Under the pieces are notes generated by a model. The model was not told the DNA's origin. It did not search any database and saw only the letters and a program-made list of their open reading frames with translations. Source: Dickeya solani IPO 2222 (GTDB lineage Bacteria; Pseudomonadota; Gammaproteobacteria; Enterobacterales; Enterobacteriaceae). Taken from it: 32,000 bases of DNA. A program made the translations under genes and the position numbers. Positions 1 through 27,634 of the stretch are shown piece by piece. Positions within the stretch are counted from its first letter, which is position 1, and every line of letters begins with the position of its first letter. Location: NCBI RefSeq assembly GCF_001644705.1, contig NZ_CP015137.1, forward strand, positions 900,001 through 932,000, given 5' to 3'.

Positions 1-130
1 CCCCTTCCTGATTCAGAAGGGCACTCATCAAATGCAGCGGCTCAATAAATTGATGATCTCGTCCGAGGGCGAGAGATTGGGCATCAGCGAGGGCAAGCTG
101 GAACTTGTTGGTAAGACGATCCAGACGCAT
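1..130 (-). CDS. clpB: ClpB disaggregase, first 43 codons only (gene runs off the window start)
   Basis: Reverse complement of 1-130 starts ATG (128-130) and reads [43 protein letters not shown]. This is near-identical to the E. coli ClpB N-terminus as I recall it. It is absent from the ORF track because the window edge truncates it. Confidence 0.85.
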
Positions 131-171
131 AACTCCTCCCATACATACTGGTCAAAATTGCTACTGGAGAT

Positions 172-200
172 TAAGTGAGGTCATCCCTCAAAAATTCAAG
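172..200 (-). promoter_or_regulatory. Candidate sigma-32 heat-shock promoter of clpB
   Basis: Minus strand reads CTTGAA (195-200), a 14-nt spacer, then CCTCACTTA (172-180). Consensus is CTTGAAA-N13-15-CCCCATNT. It sits about 40 nt upstream of the clpB ATG. Confidence 0.45.
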
Positions 201-265
201 ATTATTTTGCCAGTAATAATAGAAGAAAAAACGTTAATCCCTCCGGATCGTCTTAATTCAATAGG

Positions 266-3677: not shown

Positions 3678-3707
3678 AACCAACATTCCCAACAAGGATT
3701 TGGTGAC

Positions 3708-3779
3708 ATGACGCCACAACTGTTCTTCTTCGTATTCTTCTTTACTCTCCCCGGTGCGGGGGGGCGATTTGTCGTGTGA
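3708..3779 (+). CDS. pheL: pheA operon leader peptide (Phe-rich attenuation leader)
   Basis: ATG at 3708, translation MTPQLFFFVFFFTLPGAGGRFVV* (23 aa, 7 Phe codons, 6 of them in an FFFVFFF run). It lies directly upstream of an attenuator hairpin and pheA. Too short for the ORF track, so I translated it by hand. Confidence 0.85.
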   Translation: MTPQLFFFVFFFTLPGAGGRFVV

Positions 3780-3805
3780 GTAAGAATACGAAGACGAACA
3801 AAAAA

Positions 3806-3833
3806 AGCCTCCTGAAACCAGGAGGCTTTTTTA
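3806..3833 (+). terminator. pheA attenuator (leader terminator)
   Basis: AGCCTCCTG-AAAC-CAGGAGGCT followed by T6. The upstream segment TAAGAATACGAAGACGAAC (3781-3799) is nearly complementary to the Phe-codon run GTTCTTCTTCGTATTCTT, giving the alternative pairing expected of an attenuator. Confidence 0.85.
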
Positions 3834-3857
3834 TTGGACAGCAAACAGGTACACACC

Positions 3858-14916: not shown

Positions 14917-14996
14917 GAAAGACGCGCATTTATTATCATCATCCCTATTATCAGAGATGTTTCTTTGGCCACCCGATGACAATCGAGTGGCCTTTT
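14917..14996 (+). ncRNA. micA: MicA (SraD) Hfq-dependent sRNA
   Basis: GAAAGACGCGCATTTATTATCATCATCCCT.. matches the E. coli MicA 5' seed (GAAAGACGCGCAUUUGUUAUCAUCAUCCCU) as I recall it. It ends in the terminator GGCCACCCGA-TGACAA-TCGAGTGGCC-TTTT. The luxS-gshA intergenic location and the orientation opposite to both genes match E. coli. Confidence 0.85.
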
Positions 14997-17835: not shown

Positions 17836-17912
17836 TGGTGCATCCGGGAGGATTCGAACCTCCGACCGCTCGGTTCGTAGCCGAGTACTCTATCCAGCTG
17901 AGCTACGGATGC
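17836..17912 (-). tRNA. tRNA-Arg (anticodon ACG), copy 3 in transcription order
   Basis: Reverse complement GCATCCGTAGCTCAGCTGGATAGAGTACTCGGCTACGAACCGAGCGGTCGGAGGTTCGAATCCTCCCGGATGCACCA, 77 nt. Cloverleaf with CT-ACG-AA anticodon loop and encoded CCA. Matches E. coli argQZYV. Confidence 0.95.
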
Positions 17913-17969
17913 ATTTTTGAAATCGTTCAGATTAAGATTTTACAACAAGAGGAAACAGCATCAGAAGAA

Positions 17970-18046
17970 TGGTGCATCCGGGAGGATTCGAACCTCCGAC
18001 CGCTCGGTTCGTAGCCGAGTACTCTATCCAGCTGAGCTACGGATGC
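17970..18046 (-). tRNA. tRNA-Arg (ACG), copy 2, identical to 17836-17912
   Basis: Same 77-nt sequence as copy 3. Confidence 0.95.
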
Positions 18047-18122
18047 ATTTCAAGACTTACTGCAAACTTCTCTTAAATTGTATCGCTGACAATGCTGTTG
18101 TCAGATAACGCAGTACATTAAA

Positions 18123-18199
18123 TGGTGCATCCAGGAGGATTCGAACCTCCGACCGCTCGGTTCGTAGCCGAGTACTCTATCCAGCTGAGCTATGGATGC
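18123..18199 (-). tRNA. tRNA-Arg (ACG), copy 1, acceptor-stem variant
   Basis: Same as the other copies except GCATCCA..TGGATGC. The 7:66 pair changes from G-C to A-U, a compensatory double change. Confidence 0.93.
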
Positions 18200-18206
18200 A
18201 ATTTAA

Positions 18207-18299
18207 TGGCGGTGAGGGAGGGATTCGAACCCTCGATGCAGCTTTTGACCGCATACTCCCTTAGCAGGGGAGCGCCTTCAGCCTCTCGGCCACCTCACC
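18207..18299 (-). tRNA. serV: tRNA-Ser (anticodon GCU), class II with long variable arm
   Basis: Reverse complement GGTGAGGTGGCCGAGAGGCTGAAGGCGCTCCCCTGCTAAGGGAGTATGCGGTCAAAAGCTGCATCGAGGGTTCGAATCCCTCCCTCACCGCCA. Close to E. coli serV. It is the first gene of the serV-arg cluster, as in E. coli. Confidence 0.93.
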
Positions 18300-24309: not shown

Positions 24310-24332
24310 ATTGGCGTAACGAGACGCAGCCG

Positions 24333-24618
24333 ATGATAACTCGCCAACTGACAACCGGTGATCTCGATGAATTTCGACGCATCTGGCTGGAAAATAACCG
24401 GGTATGGACGTGTTCGAGCCGGAGTTTCAATTATGCGCTATTGCCTATGCGCTATTGCCTATGCGCTATTGCCGCCTATGCCAGGCAAAGCGATGACGGT
24501 CATGAGCGATAACCACCCGGCTATCAGGCTTTACCAATGGCTGCGCTTTCGAGGTATTTCTCTCACCACCCCAACGGCAAATGAATCCCGACAGACGTGG
24601 TATCTGGACCTGAAATAA
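24333..24618 (+). pseudogene. Remnant of a GNAT-like N-acetyltransferase (frameshifted and internally truncated)
   Basis: Frame A (24333-24512) reads MITRQLTTGDLDEFRRIWLENN... Frame A+1 (to 24618) ends ..AMTVMSDNHPAIRLYQWLRFRGISLTT....WYLDLK, which resembles the GNAT C-terminal N..A..LY...GF motif. The two frames are separated by a 14-bp x3 repeat. The total span (286 nt) is too short for an intact GNAT fold. The family call is tentative. Confidence 0.45.
24432..24473. repeat. Perfect tandem repeat, 14 bp x 3 (TATGCGCTATTGCC)
   Basis: Read directly: units at 24432-24445, 24446-24459 and 24460-24473, followed by the related GCCTATGCC. Confidence 0.95.
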
Positions 24619-24983
24619 TGCTGGCCTGTCAGTTGACAGGCCAGTTGGGTAGGAAATCCCAGAAAGGAATGGCGCCCGAATTGCGAAATACCACTGGCTA
24701 CATGATGGATTAACACATCGGGCGAATCGACTTCACGATATACCTGTTGCTTTTCAAGCTGCTGTCGTACTGGCTGCTTCGTTTCCCGGTCACCGACTTC
24801 GGTAAGCGACCAAGGGTTACGTTGTTTGCCACCGTCCTGCAAACTCAAAATCCCTTGGGTATAAAAAACCTTGTTATCGGTGTTTCATCCCTGGAGGGTA
24901 ATTAACGCGACACTCTCCCATTCAGTCTTCGCATCTTGTTCTGCTTTGAGTGCGTTTTGTGACGATACCTTATTTTCTGGCAT
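24531..24983 (-). pseudogene. Unknown-function ORF interrupted by a single in-frame TGA (or a 32-aa small protein with a long 3' region)
   Basis: ATG at 24981-24983 gives MPENKVSSQNALKAEQDAKTEWESVALITLQG, then TGA (24885-24887). The same frame continues NTDNKVFYTQGILSLQDGGKQRNPWSLTEVGDRETKQPVRQQLEKQQVYREVDSPDVLIHHVASGISQ.. into the track ORF 24531-24848. The distance 24983-24848 is 135 nt (45 codons), so the frame is shared. I recognise no family. The 3' end overlaps the hairpin and the GNAT remnant, so the true end is uncertain. Confidence 0.45.
24621..24644. other. Perfect 11-bp-arm inverted repeat (hairpin)
   Basis: CTGGCCTGTCA-GT-TGACAGGCCAG, immediately after the GNAT-remnant stop (24616-24618). 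No clean T-run on either side. It may be a decayed terminator for one or both convergent remnants. Confidence 0.5.
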
Positions 24984-25001
24984 GTTCTTTTTCTCTTTTA
25001 T

Positions 25002-25028
25002 TTATCGGCGAGAAAATCAACAACCTTA
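25002..25028 (-). promoter_or_regulatory. Near-consensus sigma-28 (FliA) promoter
   Basis: Minus strand reads TAAGGTTG (25021-25028), an 11-nt spacer TTGATTTTCTC, then GCCGATAA (25002-25009). Consensus is TAAAGTTT-N11-GCCGATAA. The -10 element matches 8/8, the -35 matches 6/8, and the spacer is exact. It lies 19 nt upstream of ATG 24983. Confidence 0.65.
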
Positions 25029-25117
25029 ACCCAGAAAGAAAATATTTTTACTTCCCAGAATGATTATTCCCTACTGAACTATTGTCACATTGAAATATAG
25101 CGACTGTAGATAGATAT

Positions 25118-25143
25118 AAAAAAAAGCCCACCGACAGGTGGGC
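25118..25143 (-). terminator. Intrinsic terminator T1 of array unit U1
   Basis: Minus strand GCCCACC-TGTC-GGTGGGC followed by T8. Confidence 0.8.
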
Positions 25144-25210
25144 AAAGCTATTGGGTTTTTCAACAGCAAAGATTTAGTAGTACTGGCACGACAGCTATCC
25201 ACTGCCTGAA
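25118..25210 (-). ncRNA. Candidate small RNA, array unit U1 (unnamed family; 5' end approximate)
   Basis: Upstream box TAAGGTTA (plus coordinates 25238-25245) lies 127 nt from the T-tail. A second box TTTTCAGG lies at 25205-25212. The body contains CTGTCGTGCCAGT. Ends in T1. No ORF of 60 aa or more on either strand. Confidence 0.35.
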
Positions 25211-25317
25211 AATAAATTTACCCGTCATTCCTTAAAATAACCTTAGTTTTATATCACCATCATATAAATATTAATAAAAACGGCCATAGAAATAAAACAA
25301 CCCACTGTTGTTCAAGC

Positions 25318-25342
25318 AAAAAAAAGCCCACCAAAGGTGGGC
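25318..25342 (-). terminator. Intrinsic terminator T2 of array unit U2
   Basis: Minus strand GCCCACC-TTT-GGTGGGC followed by T8. It lies exactly 200 bp from T1. Confidence 0.8.
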
Positions 25343-25410
25343 AAAATGACACTATTCTCTGACATGAAGCATCCTGAAGACACAGGTTGGCGGCGTTCCG
25401 CCGCCTGATA
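25318..25410 (-). ncRNA. Candidate small RNA, array unit U2
   Basis: Box TAATGTTG (25437-25444) lies 126 nt from the T-tail. TTATCAGG lies at 25404-25411, followed by the 5' hairpin GGCGGCG-GAA-CGCCGCC, then the single-stranded-looking GTCAGAGAATAGTGTCATTTT, then T2. Confidence 0.35.
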
Positions 25411-25499
25411 AGAATCCTATTATATAAACATTAAGCCAACATTAGGAAAAACAAAAAACGATATTAAACTCGAAGCATCACTAGAAATGAAAGACGACT

Positions 25500-25528
25500 A
25501 AAAAAACAAAGCCCACCAAAAGGTGGGC
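25500..25528 (-). terminator. Intrinsic terminator T3 of array unit U3
   Basis: Minus strand GCCCACC-TTTT-GGTGGGC followed by TTTGTTTTTTT. Confidence 0.8.
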
Positions 25529-25592
25529 AAATACTATCTAATAATTTTAAAAAACCTGGTGTTTCGGCGCGGTAATATCATCACCTGCTGAT
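25500..25592 (-). ncRNA. Candidate small RNA, array unit U3
   Basis: Box TAAGGTTG (25617-25624) lies 124 nt from the T-tail. TTATCAGC lies at 25587-25594. The body contains CGCGCCGAAACACCAGG and TTAGATAGTATTT before T3. Confidence 0.35.
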
Positions 25593-25722
25593 AAAGTTAC
25601 ACCAGAGAGATTAAACCAACCTTAAAAAAAACAATTTACCTATTTATTTTTCGGCCGTTAAAAATAAAAAAAGAAAACCCAACTTGCGACAATAATCCCT
25701 GCCGTCATTATCATCAGAGAAC

Positions 25723-25746
25723 AAAAAGCCCATCAGACGATGGGCT
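25723..25746 (-). terminator. Intrinsic terminator T4 of array unit U4
   Basis: Minus strand AGCCCATC-GTCT-GATGGGCT followed by TTTTT(G). Confidence 0.7.
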
Positions 25747-25812
25747 AAATAAGAATGACAATCGAAAAAATTCCTTACTCTATAACATGGCACGGCAGTC
25801 AATTAACACTAA
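25723..25812 (-). ncRNA. Candidate small RNA, array unit U4 (most diverged)
   Basis: Box CAGGTTGG (25835-25842) lies 119 nt from the T-tail. CTTAGTG lies at 25807-25813. The body contains CTGCCGTGCCATG (compare U1). Ends in T4. Confidence 0.3.
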
Positions 25813-26043
25813 GTGAAAGTGTAACAGAAATCCGCCAACCTGCTCTGGCAGCGGTCATTATTCTTCTATTTTTGTGAGAATGCGCATCCTCCCCTGCCCG
25901 CTATCGGTAACGGCGGCCAGCACTCCGCTAAAACAGTTTTTTATTTCCTGCAGGTTTGCAGGTTTCCCCAGGCATCACGTACACTCGCCAGAAGACACGG
26001 CGACTCCCGCACAAGAAGGGGTTTACTCGCCTATTTCGAGCGG

Positions 26044-26088
26044 TTATGACAATACGTAATTATGACAATACGCAGTTATCACAAATAG
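26044..26088. repeat. 16-bp-period direct repeat spanning the SRPBCC start codon
   Basis: TTATGACAATACG-TAA / TTATGACAATACG-CAG / TTATCACAAATAG, i.e. two perfect 13-mers plus one degenerate copy. This creates two ATGs: 26046 in frame, and 26062 out of frame (an 8-codon dead end). Confidence 0.85.
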
Positions 26089-26645
26089 CAGAACAGAGTC
26101 TGTCTCAGGCAAATCCAGGAGGGGAAGACAACGTGCCACCCGCATTCTTACGTCGATCTGGCATAACGGATAATCACACCGATCGACTCAGTAGTTCATT
26201 GGTGATTTACCGCCCGGCGGATGTGCTGTTCGATTTGTGGCGCGACCCCAAAACGCTACCGGTGCTGATGAACCATGTCGCCCACATCGACATCATCAAC
26301 AGCACGGATTCTCTGTGGCGAATGAAAGCGCCGCTCGGCCAATATATCGAATGGCAAGCGCGTATCGTGGATGAGCAACCCGGCCAGTTTATTCACTGGT
26401 GCTCGCTGCCGGGCGCCAGAATCCCGAATGATGGGCGTCTCTCGTTTCGTCCCGACCCGCATAGTGACGGCACCAAAGTTACCCTCAGTATTCGTTTCGA
26501 TCCTCCGGGCGGTTTTTTGGGGCGCACCCTCAGCCAGGTGTTTCAACTGCTGCCTAAAGAGATGTTGCACAAAACGCTGCTGCGCTTTAAACAGATGGCG
26601 GAACAGCCCGCCGCTGGCGCAATGCCGCCACCTGATGGGCGTTGA
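26046..26645 (+). CDS. SRPBCC-superfamily protein (polyketide cyclase/dehydrase-like lipid/ligand-binding fold)
   Basis: The track ORF 25956-26645 is trimmed to ATG 26046 (MTIRNYDNTQLSQ..). The core ..IYRPADVLFDLWRDPKTLPVLMNHVAHIDII..SLWRMKAPLG..IEWQARIVDEQPGQFIHW.SLPGA.IPN.G.LSFRP...GTKVTLSIRF.PPGG.. fits the cyclase/dehydrase pattern I recall. It has a roughly 60-aa low-complexity N-terminal extension. Confidence 0.6.
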   Translation: MTIRNYDNTQLSQIAEQSLSQANPGGEDNVPPAFLRRSGITDNHTDRLSSSLVIYRPADVLFDLWRDPKTLPVLMNHVAHIDIINSTDSLWRMKAPLGQYIEWQARIVDEQPGQFIHWCSLPGARIPNDGRLSFRPDPHSDGTKVTLSIRFDPPGGFLGRTLSQVFQLLPKEMLHKTLLRFKQMAEQPAAGAMPPPDGR

Positions 26646-26728: not shown

Positions 26729-27262
26729 TTATTTCTTGTCAGGCATCATCCGCAGCAACGTATCGTCGCGTACCACATAGTGATGATACAGAGCGGCTAC
26801 CGCATGGAGCCCAACCAGGAAATACCCGGCGTTGGCAATCAGTTCATGAATGTTCAGCAATGTCTCCTTGATACCTTCATCCGACTCGGCAGCAAACGGC
26901 ATCGCAATGCCGAACACCGACCAGTCGGCGCCGCGATAGTACATGCCCACCACACCCAACACCGGCAACGCCAGAAACATCAGATAAATAAAGCCATGCA
27001 CAGCATGGGACGCAATCACCAGCAGCCGTCCCGGCTGTGGCGTGATAGGCGGAGTCGGATAACGAAAGCGCTGCACAACCCGCAGGATCATCAACACCCA
27101 CACGGACACGCCACAGCTGTAATGAATAGTCGACATCAGCGCTCGCGCACTACTCCCGCGCGGAGCAAAACCACGCAGCTCCATAGCGGCATAAGTGACT
27201 ATCACCAGCAGCAACACCAGCCAGTGCAACACAATCTGAGATGAATGATACTTGGTCTTCAT
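26729..27262 (-). CDS. cybB: Cytochrome b561 family protein (CybB-like superoxide oxidase/quinone reductase)
   Basis: MKTKYHSSQIVLHWLVLLLVIVTYAAMELRGF.PR......M..IH.SCG.SV.VLM..R...R.RYPTPPI.P.P.., C-term HHY...D.TLLRMMP.K. Collinear with E. coli CybB as I recall it. The start at ATG 27260-27262 is preceded by GAAGGA. The track start at 27286 lies inside a palindrome. Confidence 0.8.
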   Translation of the reverse strand: MKTKYHSSQIVLHWLVLLLVIVTYAAMELRGFAPRGSSARALMSTIHYSCGVSVWVLMILRVVQRFRYPTPPITPQPGRLLVIASHAVHGFIYLMFLALPVLGVVGMYYRGADWSVFGIAMPFAAESDEGIKETLLNIHELIANAGYFLVGLHAVAALYHHYVVRDDTLLRMMPDKK

Positions 27263-27272
27263 GGAATTCCTT

Positions 27273-27292
27273 CTCTGTATGAGCATACAATC
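27273..27292. promoter_or_regulatory. LexA-box-like palindrome upstream of the cybB-like gene
   Basis: CTCTGTATGAGCATACAATC. The core CTGTATGAGCATACAA matches 15/16 of the E. coli recA SOS-box core CTGTATGAGCATACAG, with a mismatch in the distal CAG. The inner TGTATG-AG-CATACA is a perfect palindrome. It lies 11-30 nt upstream of the ATG. Confidence 0.35.
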
Positions 27293-27383
27293 AGTGTGTG
27301 AATATAAAACGCATACAGCCTAACTTCACTATCTTAAGCTAGCATTAGTTTTTAGCTGGTAGCAGTGAAACGTTCTTTTAGGC

Positions 27384-27414
27384 AAAAAAATCCCGCCTTA
27401 ATGGGAAGGCGGGA
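27384..27414 (-). terminator. Intrinsic terminator T5 (stand-alone unit between the LysE-family gene and the cybB-like gene)
   Basis: Minus strand TCCCGCCTT-CCCATT-AAGGCGGGA followed by T7. It lies about 255 nt downstream of the LysE-family stop, which has its own hairpin at 27641-27658. Confidence 0.75.
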
Positions 27415-27419
27415 AAATA

Positions 27420-27450
27420 ACTACTCTCTGACAATGACTACTCTCTGACA
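27420..27450. repeat. 17-bp-period tandem duplication (ACTACTCTCTGACA x2)
   Basis: Identical 14-mers at 27420-27433 and 27437-27450, which duplicates the conserved pre-terminator motif of unit U5. Confidence 0.9.
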
Positions 27451-27634
27451 GGGATGAATAACACAACATCAACAAGGGTTAAGACAAACATTACCAGTTG
27501 CAGTGTATAGAACTGTCATCCGTCAGTAATGTTGGTTGGCAGGATGTAAGTCGACTTTGACAGGGGTAACATCGTCGAATGGGGTCTGTCGGAAAGGAAA
27601 AAGGAACGGTAAAAAGCGCGTCTCAGGGCATACC

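Follow-up and report, generated by a model that had tools for sequence, protein, structure and literature searches.

A tandem cluster of candidate PmrA-activated small RNA genes upstream of pncC–recA in Dickeya solani

The DNA analysed here is a 32,000-nucleotide stretch of the potato pathogen Dickeya solani IPO 2222 (contig NZ_CP015137.1, positions 900,001 to 932,000; hereafter the window), in which four short units, U1 to U4, lie in tandem on the minus strand between positions 25100 and 25830, in the gap between pncC(–recA) and a divergent SRPBCC gene. We propose, with a probability of about 0.7, that U1, U2 and U3 are paralogous small RNAs (sRNAs) encoded by independent minus-strand genes, activated by PmrA (BasR) and probably of the Hfq type. 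The proposal draws on sequence anatomy, conservation, covariation and a promoter architecture identical to that of validated PmrA promoters. A preliminary description of the region had noted an AT-rich gap at 24984–25873 with no open reading frame (ORF) of 60 aa or more, and both features hold: the longest ORFs there are 52, 43, 40 and 30 aa, and the GC content is 0.34–0.39 over 24850–25900 versus 0.49–0.58 in the flanks. The comparison used loci anchored on PncC from 10 further genomes, nine of Dickeya (D. dadantii, D. dianthicola, D. fangzhongdai, D. undicola, D. oryzae, D. zeae, D. chrysanthemi, D. aquatica and strain CFBP 2040) and one of Musicola (M. keenii), together with many loci from Pectobacterium, Brenneria and Lonsdalea.

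The promoters of U1, U2 and U3 share a single plan, in which a 17-bp direct repeat, xTTAAK-N5-xTTAAK, occupies the −35 position and is followed after 10 nt by a TAnnnT −10 element. The boxes of U3, U2 and U1 read TTTAAGGTTGGTTTAAT, CCTAATGTTGGCTTAAT and ACTAAGGTTATTTTAAG, and the corresponding −10 elements are TAACTT, TAGGAT and TAAATT. For U1, the PmrA-type box (ACTAAG-GTTAT-TTTAAG, 25231..25247, minus strand) is conserved in 9 species, and the −10 (TAAATT, 25215..25220, minus strand), 10 nt past the box, is TAnnnT in all orthologues. The U2 box (CCTAAT-GTTGG-CTTAAT, 25430..25446, minus strand) is invariant in all Dickeya, and its −10 (TAGGAT, 25414..25419, minus strand) is TAGnAT or TAGACT in the orthologues. 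U3 has the box TTTAAG-GTTGG-TTTAAT at 25610..25626 and the −10 TAACTT at 25594..25599, again on the minus strand. The combination of box, spacing and −10 occurs four times in the 32-kb window against 0.03 expected, a count that none of 100 shuffles reaches, and all four copies are on the minus strand within 2.2 kb. Across the species, 52 distinct promoter instances have a fixed box and TA...T and a variable 10-nt gap.

These elements place the two conserved boxes that the preliminary description had reported in front of each terminator. Box 1 of U1, U2 and U3 (TAAGGTTA, TAATGTTG and TAAGGTTG) and their box 2 (TTTTCAGG, TTATCAGG and TTATCAGC) show little or no variation in 10 other species. Because one of the Musicola units, unit d, reads TTAAGGTTGGTTTAAGGTTG, box 1 can be identified as the leading half of a direct repeat whose period is 11 bp, and box 2 coincides with the start site predicted from the promoter geometry, the C of a conserved CAG. 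The claim does not extend to U4, whose supposed box 1 (CAGGTTGG) is not conserved between species and whose CTTAGTG sits at the predicted start site.

The PmrA box has been defined as a pair of xTTAAK/Y hexamers with 5 nt between them, which overlaps the −35 element or stands in its place (PMC10570014, PMC3973317). The arnB, eptA and pmrR promoters of E. coli K-12 read CTTAAGGTTnnnTTAAT followed by 10 nt and TAAAAT/GAGCAT/CATACT; taken singly, these are CTTAAGGTTAAGTTAAT + 10 nt + TAAAAT for arnB, CTTAAGGTTGGCTTAAT + 10 nt + GAGCAT for eptA and CTTAAGGTTCACTTAAT + 10 nt + CATACT for pmrR. The Dickeya promoters have both the hexamer repeat and the box-to-−10 distance of a PmrA/BasR promoter, and they resemble eptA (pmrC), arnB (pbgP) and pmrR in the 17-bp box at −35, the exact 10 nt to a weak −10 and the half-site TTAAKGTT. 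Identity to the E. coli eptA box is 14/17 for U2, 15/17 for U3 and for Musicola unit c, and 16/17 for a box in front of cybB in D. chrysanthemi. The promoter class, which the preliminary description had left open, can be assigned for U1–U3 as a PmrA/BasR box at −35, but not for U4. The Dickeya boxes differ from those of E. coli in that the first hexamer is mostly CTAAK, and the products differ as well: in E. coli the genes under these promoters encode enzymes of lipid A modification and a small membrane protein, whereas the promoters of Dickeya would drive predicted ~90-nt RNAs without ORFs.

At the other end of each unit, a terminator scan recovered the four minus-strand intrinsic terminators seen earlier, with their T tails in the same places, and it found 12 terminator-like sites in 3 kb against 3.1 ± 2.2 in shuffled sequence. 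The terminators are at 25143–25126 for U1 (GCCCACC-TGTC-GGTGGGC + T8), 25342–25326 for U2 (with a U8 tail), 25528–25511 for U3 and 25746–25727 for U4 (AGCCCATC-GTCT-GATGGGCT + T5); the tails are U7–U8 in U1–U3 and U5GUU in U4. Over 33 distinct sequences the stems are invariant and the loops take more than 20 different sequences, and compensatory C-G to U-A changes occur in the terminator stems of Musicola and Pectobacterium.

The predicted RNAs are 87–98 nt long overall. The U1 RNA (91 nt, 25118..25208, minus strand), with its +1 taken from the promoter geometry, is predicted to fold into a 5′ hairpin, a single-stranded stretch beginning GUGCCAGUACUAC, a second hairpin and the terminator with U8; nhmmer and covariance-model matches to U1 end exactly at 25208. 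In U2 (90 nt, 25318..25407, minus strand), the predicted fold has a 5′ hairpin, GGCGGCGG-AA-CGCCGCC, then a small hairpin, CCUG..CAGG, after which the invariant AUGCUUCAUGYCAGAGAAUAGUGUC leads into the terminator and its U8. U3 (88 nt, 25500..25587, minus strand) consists of a variable 5′ part, a conserved core, GCGCC-AAACACCAGG-UUUU, which recurs in Musicola and Pectobacterium units, an A/U-rich stretch and the terminator. The predictions for U2 and U3 draw on promoter geometry, fold and covariance model; the limits of U4 (~92 nt, 25719..25811, minus strand) depend on an extended −10 described below. The motifs shared between bodies in the preliminary description are present: U1 and U4 have CTGYCGTGCCA in common (CUGYCGUGCCA in the RNA), the CUGCCGUGCCA of U4 also occurs in U1, and U2 and U3 share CGCCG..AAC and AGA(A)TAGT. 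One stretch in each of U1 (GUGCCAGUACUAC), U2 (AUGCUUCAUGCCAGAG) and U3 (AAACACCAGG) is both invariant and predicted to be unpaired. The units have the attributes of free-standing genes for Hfq-type sRNAs, namely a putative promoter of their own, a Rho-independent terminator and no flanking ORF on the same strand.

Conservation follows the boundaries of these units. In alignments it sets in sharply, a few bases before box 1, and ends directly after the T tail, and every Dickeya genome compared has one-to-one orthologues in the order U4, U3, U2, U1, except that D. aquatica is without U1. The U2 RNA is 90–91% identical between D. solani and D. chrysanthemi or D. aquatica, with a body that is nearly invariant across the genus, and the U1 RNA is 85% identical between D. 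solani and D. chrysanthemi. Over the same species pairs, four-fold degenerate sites of recA are 51–55% identical. The spacers between units contain indels, are unalignable and score no better than shuffled sequence. Because the bodies are conserved above the recA four-fold sites and the spacers have decayed to the level of shuffled sequence, these are maintained genes. Together with the orthology, this supports the earlier suggestion that they are small transcription units rather than a junk duplication. By these comparisons, the units are under purifying selection at the RNA level and are not decaying duplicates.

Unit number varies among relatives (1 in Pectobacterium, 3–4 in Dickeya and 4 in Musicola) with boxes and terminators conserved. 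Of the four box-driven units in Musicola keenii, one resembles U3, two resemble U2 and one resembles U1. In at least 12 Pectobacterium species (11 by a strict promoter scan, to which nhmmer adds P. betavasculorum), just one unit, U3-like, lies between the SRPBCC gene and pncC, with the same box, spacing and CAG start as the Dickeya units and the core GCCGCAAAACACCAGGGUUUUU. Upstream of pncC, nhmmer searches with profiles of the U1, U2 and U3 types gave no match in Brenneria, Lonsdalea, Symbiopectobacterium, Erwinia or Pantoea, and none of the complete E. coli genomes matched the array in blastn. A scan of metagenomes for the box, the −10 and CAGRC returned 14 loci, of which two are family members (the Dickeya-like L107 and the Pectobacterium-like L115); the others are unrelated or precede protein genes. 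It is likely that one ancestral gene was amplified and diversified in the Dickeya/Musicola lineage. U1, U2 and U3 are old, distinct paralogue lineages rather than recent copies, and beside them stands U4, which has a different promoter. In a blastn search of plasmids, the sole match was of 36 nt (97%) to the U2 terminator (CATTTTGCCCACCTTTGGTGGGCTTTTTTTTGC), on the Chimaeribacter arupi plasmid NZ_CP119396.1 (L103:1501-1536); since it comes with neither a PmrA box nor similarity to the body, we regard it as a convergent or chance match to a terminator.

When compared by sequence with nhmmer, the unit types match one another at their 3′ ends only. A covariance model built from U2 orthologues alone finds U1 with 36.7 bits (E = 6.5e-7), U3 with 30.1 bits (E = 3e-5), a further unit upstream of cybB, U5, with 21.1 bits (E = 6.5e-3) and U4 with 19.5 bits (E = 0.017, a partial match at 25720–25782). 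As a yardstick in the same window, this model gives MicA 14.5 bits (E = 0.33). The boundaries of the U1 and U3 matches are the start sites predicted from their promoters. In an alignment of 32 sequences from the model matches, fitted to the structure of the model, 92% of cells pair and 5 of the 6 pairs of the 5′ stem change on both sides; none of 500 shuffles reaches the covariation score, and sliding the partners lowers pairing to 54% or less. By this evidence U1, U2 and U3, together with U5 and U4, make up a single predicted paralogous family, which extends past the array to the one Pectobacterium unit, the four Musicola units and U5.

Two features of the neighbourhood bear on how the cluster is regulated. 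A fourth PmrA-type promoter, ACTAATGCTAGCTTAAG + 10 nt + TAGGCT (27317..27349, minus strand), stands in front of cybB (cytochrome b561; 26729–27286, minus strand; NCBIfam equivalog, 228 bits), and this box is kept in every Dickeya and Musicola locus that extends so far. Its presence makes the neighbourhood look like a small PmrA-controlled island and implies that cybB would be a PmrA-regulated gene in Dickeya and Musicola. U4 has instead an extended −10, TGTTACACT (25818..25826, minus strand), found in 10 of 11 aligned sequences and reading TGTTATCCT in CFBP 2040, which would place its start near 25811; the region upstream of this element is not conserved. The conserved blocks that lie still farther off look like an extended −10 (TGTGAGAAT) that would serve the divergent SRPBCC gene on the opposite strand. 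Its own promoter type suggests that U4 is probably regulated differently from U1–U3.

Our preferred interpretation of the cluster is a branch of the PmrAB response. The signals of PmrB (ferric iron, aluminium and mild acid) are known from Salmonella and E. coli. On activation of the PmrB sensor by one of these signals, phosphorylated PmrA would bind the box and recruit sigma-70 RNA polymerase, and transcription would begin at the conserved CAG and end ~90 nt on at the GC hairpin with its U7–8 tail. The predicted RNA layout, with its 5′ hairpin (U1 and U2), its unpaired conserved stretch and a 3′ end rich in U, is that of an Hfq-binding, base-pairing regulator. Phosphorylated PmrA would activate U1–U3 and cybB, and the RNAs would bind Hfq and use their conserved single-stranded stretches to base-pair with different mRNAs. 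Because those stretches differ in sequence among U1, U2 and U3, the three probably act on different mRNA targets.

Several observations weigh against this interpretation. Transcription of the units and their start sites are predictions from sequence. The first hexamer is mostly xCTAAK and not xTTAAK, although CCTAAG is a proven PmrA half-site in Klebsiella pbgP. U4 has no PmrA-type box. Unlike the U1 and U2 types, the U3 type shows no consistent 5′ hairpin, and the alignment behind the covariation score was fitted to the structure of the model. Scanning the 33 ORF starts of the window with duplexfold pointed to no target. Finally, the direct repeat of the boxes could be read by a PmrA paralogue or another OmpR/PhoB-family regulator. 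We consider it unlikely that such a regulator, for example the PmrA paralogue QseB/PreA, is what activates these sRNA genes. It would fit the occurrence of 11-bp-period direct repeats at −35 throughout the OmpR/PhoB family and the atypical PmrA regulon of D. dadantii, with arnB outside PmrA control; PmrA–QseB cross-talk is also documented (PMC10729948). However, the likeness of the boxes goes beyond the period of the repeat, for the half-site core TTAAKGTT and the 10-nt distance to the −10 are identical to those of the E. coli PmrA promoters, and whole 17-mers come near to identity with the eptA box, most closely those of cybB in D. chrysanthemi and of Musicola unit c.

The remaining explanations require that the boxes or the bodies be something else. 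The preliminary description had considered sigma-28 (FliA), with box 1 as the sigma-28 −35 element, since TAAGGTTG is identical in U3 and in a sigma-28-type promoter, U0, just downstream of the array, which matches TAAAGTTT-N11-GCCGATAA with 2 mismatches. We find FliA-dependent sRNAs highly improbable, given that U0 (25002–25028) is the only site within 3 mismatches of the sigma-28 consensus, that the first half of the U2 box is TAATGTTG, and that the −10 regions of U1–U3 (ACGGGTAA, TATAATAG and TGGTGTAA) are without the CGA core and have TAnnnT one turn further on; moreover, the conserved element runs on to a second TTAAK hexamer 11 bp downstream, which PmrA needs and sigma-28 does not. The units might also be no genes at all, but a stack of terminators or insulators with decaying promoter duplicates that shields pncC–recA and has no RNA function. 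Their tandem arrangement in the same orientation as pncC–recA, the AT-rich region of variable length among genomes and the change of copy number between genera would all suit such a stack, but it is hard to reconcile with covarying stems, with unconstrained spacers, or with promoter-to-terminator sequence as the most conserved part, up to the nearly invariant U2 body. Insulation of pncC is also unneeded in D. dadantii, D. chrysanthemi and D. aquatica, where a GNAT gene of opposite orientation separates the array from pncC, and we hold this reading to be very unlikely. An equally faint prospect to that of FliA control is that the units code for small proteins, comparable to PmrR of E. coli (29 aa), or for type I toxin–antitoxin pairs. 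PmrA does drive the small-protein gene pmrR in E. coli, and U1 contains a 9-codon frame (GTG/ATG CCA GTA CTA ... TGA) that has the same length in Dickeya and Musicola, but substitutions in that frame show no bias to synonymous sites, no ORF of at least 10 aa with a ribosome-binding site is common to the units or conserved between species on either strand, and there is no hydrophobic peptide typical of type I toxins. The type I repeats Ibs/Sib, Ldr/Rdl and Zor/Orz were set aside for the same reason, as no small hydrophobic ORF is shared or conserved on either strand.

Activation of U1–U3 by PmrA would bear on the role of this regulator in the group. The pmrCAB genes are present in D. dadantii 3937, where PmrA is reported to mediate the induction of some genes by Fe3+, not to control arnB and to contribute only weakly to polymyxin resistance (PMC3544676). 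A protein search with E. coli BasR gave 6413 matches, the best 120 of which are all from Enterobacteriaceae. PmrA/BasR is best known for resistance to polymyxin and antimicrobial peptides. A broader proposal is that PmrAB in soft-rot Pectobacteriaceae commands an sRNA regulon of its own, in which a single-copy ancestor, as in Pectobacterium, was amplified to three or four tandem paralogues with differing seeds in Dickeya and Musicola; we see roughly even odds for it. If it is true, the output of PmrA in these plant and insect pathogens would be for the most part post-transcriptional, which would fit the absence of arn control and the weak polymyxin role of PmrA in D. dadantii, and these would be, as far as we found, the first PmrA-dependent sRNAs described in Enterobacterales. 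The PmrA signature in three of the promoters suggests that this envelope-stress response has an undescribed RNA arm. For the role of PmrA in D. dadantii, three candidate sRNA genes with PmrA boxes beside a cybB with a box of this type offer concrete, testable objects. The copy-number series of 1, 3–4 and 4, in which promoter and terminator are kept and the middle of the RNA diverges, is also a natural example of the expansion of an sRNA family and illustrates how such a family may gain new target specificities.

We compared the units with known RNA families. An Rfam 15 search of 24800–26100, a check suggested in the preliminary description, gave no match at the gathering score, nor did the Pectobacterium, Musicola and D. 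aquatica loci match any Rfam family at that score. The best matches below threshold were RprA on U3 (27.2 bits, threshold 70), Ysr49 on U2 (23.5 bits, threshold 95) and MicA (23.5 bits, threshold 41); for U5 the best was Hrs13 of Erwinia (20.1 bits, threshold 52), which was not reproduced on D. aquatica. All four are like the units in size, U-rich region and GCCCAYC-type terminator, but the alignments rest on the terminator and score far below threshold. The E. coli rprA promoter, in addition, has an RcsB box and no PmrA-type box.

Several sRNAs controlled by two-component systems are known, including OmrA/B under OmpR, MgrR under PhoP and RprA under Rcs. MgrR, a PhoP-activated Hfq sRNA of E. 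coli and Salmonella that controls the lipopolysaccharide-modifying enzyme EptB, was suggested as a candidate by an mgtS-like ORF near a homologous locus (L094). It resembles the units as an intergenic sRNA of ~98 nt with its own promoter, a response-regulator repeat at −35 and an intrinsic terminator, and as part of an envelope-remodelling two-component regulon. It differs in being single-copy and in having a PhoP box (GTTTAA-N5-GTTTAA) in its promoter; it has no sequence similarity to the units, and Rfam searches of the array at the gathering score and at E ≤ 10 gave no MgrR match. Multicopy paralogous sets of sRNAs include OmrA/OmrB, Qrr1-5, PrrF1/2 and LhrC1-5. OmrA and OmrB come close to the array as adjacent duplicated paralogues with common promoter logic and terminator under one two-component regulator; they share a 5′ seed and are redundant, whereas the Dickeya paralogues have diverged in their presumed seeds, which suggests different targets. 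The Dickeya and Pectobacterium literature that we searched has no name for these RNAs, and we found no description of an enterobacterial sRNA dependent on PmrA/BasR. The kind of element, a two-component-controlled sRNA amplified in tandem, is well known, and these particular RNAs are, as far as we found, undescribed.

U5 (27384..27500, minus strand), the sRNA-like gene upstream of cybB, lies between a LysE-family gene and the cybB promoter. It ends in a terminator at 27411–27384 (CCCGCC..GGCGGG + T7), shares the module CCCUGUCAGAGAGUAGU with U2 and is without a PmrA box. Conservation covers a block of ~130 nt, which is present in all Dickeya, in Musicola and Lonsdalea, in some Brenneria and Symbiopectobacterium, and on a Pectobacteriaceae contig (L094), where it comes after mgtS/mgtT-like ORFs. 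In D. solani and D. dadantii only, U5 carries a 17-nt tandem duplication of the module GUCAGAGAGUAGU (27416–27450, minus strand).

The U0 promoter, TAAGGTTG-N11-GCCGATAA (25002..25028, minus strand), has 2 mismatches to the sigma-28 consensus, and the 8-mer at 25021–25028 is indeed part of it, as noted in the preliminary description; it is the sole match to the consensus in the window. As its −35 half resembles a single PmrA half-site, U0 may derive from a PmrA-type unit. The U0 −10 (CCGATAAATAAAA) is conserved in 8 Dickeya species, and the promoter would drive an ORF-poor transcript of ~370 nt to a convergent hairpin at 24644–24621; a 32-aa ORF at 24885–24983 has its start codon in D. solani only.

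The array is flanked by alaS, recX, recA and pncC, all on the minus strand of the window, and by the SRPBCC/polyketide-cyclase gene (25956–26645, plus strand). A 16-nt direct repeat, TTATGACAATACGCAA, occurs 2.6 times at 26044–26084 (plus strand), at the annotated SRPBCC start (26046) and upstream of an alternative start near 26133, and could be an operator. The GNAT acetyltransferase gene, intact (154–177 aa) in D. dadantii, D. chrysanthemi and D. aquatica, is a broken remnant in D. solani (~24331–24620, plus strand) that holds a perfect 14-nt tandem repeat in three copies at 24432–24473. In Dickeya sp. CFBP 2040 (L089:2317-3510), an insertion sequence with a DDE transposase takes the place of the U0/GNAT segment directly after U1. 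One D. solani assembly (CM001860; L083:2834-2933) has a run of N between U2 and U1, an assembly gap, so assemblers evidently have trouble with these repeats. Elsewhere in the window, Rfam matches at the gathering score are RyfD (Ysr155) at 111–255 (minus strand), a Phe leader at 3707–3835 (plus strand), MicA at 14917–14996 (plus strand) and a cluster of four tRNA genes at 17839–18299 (minus strand).

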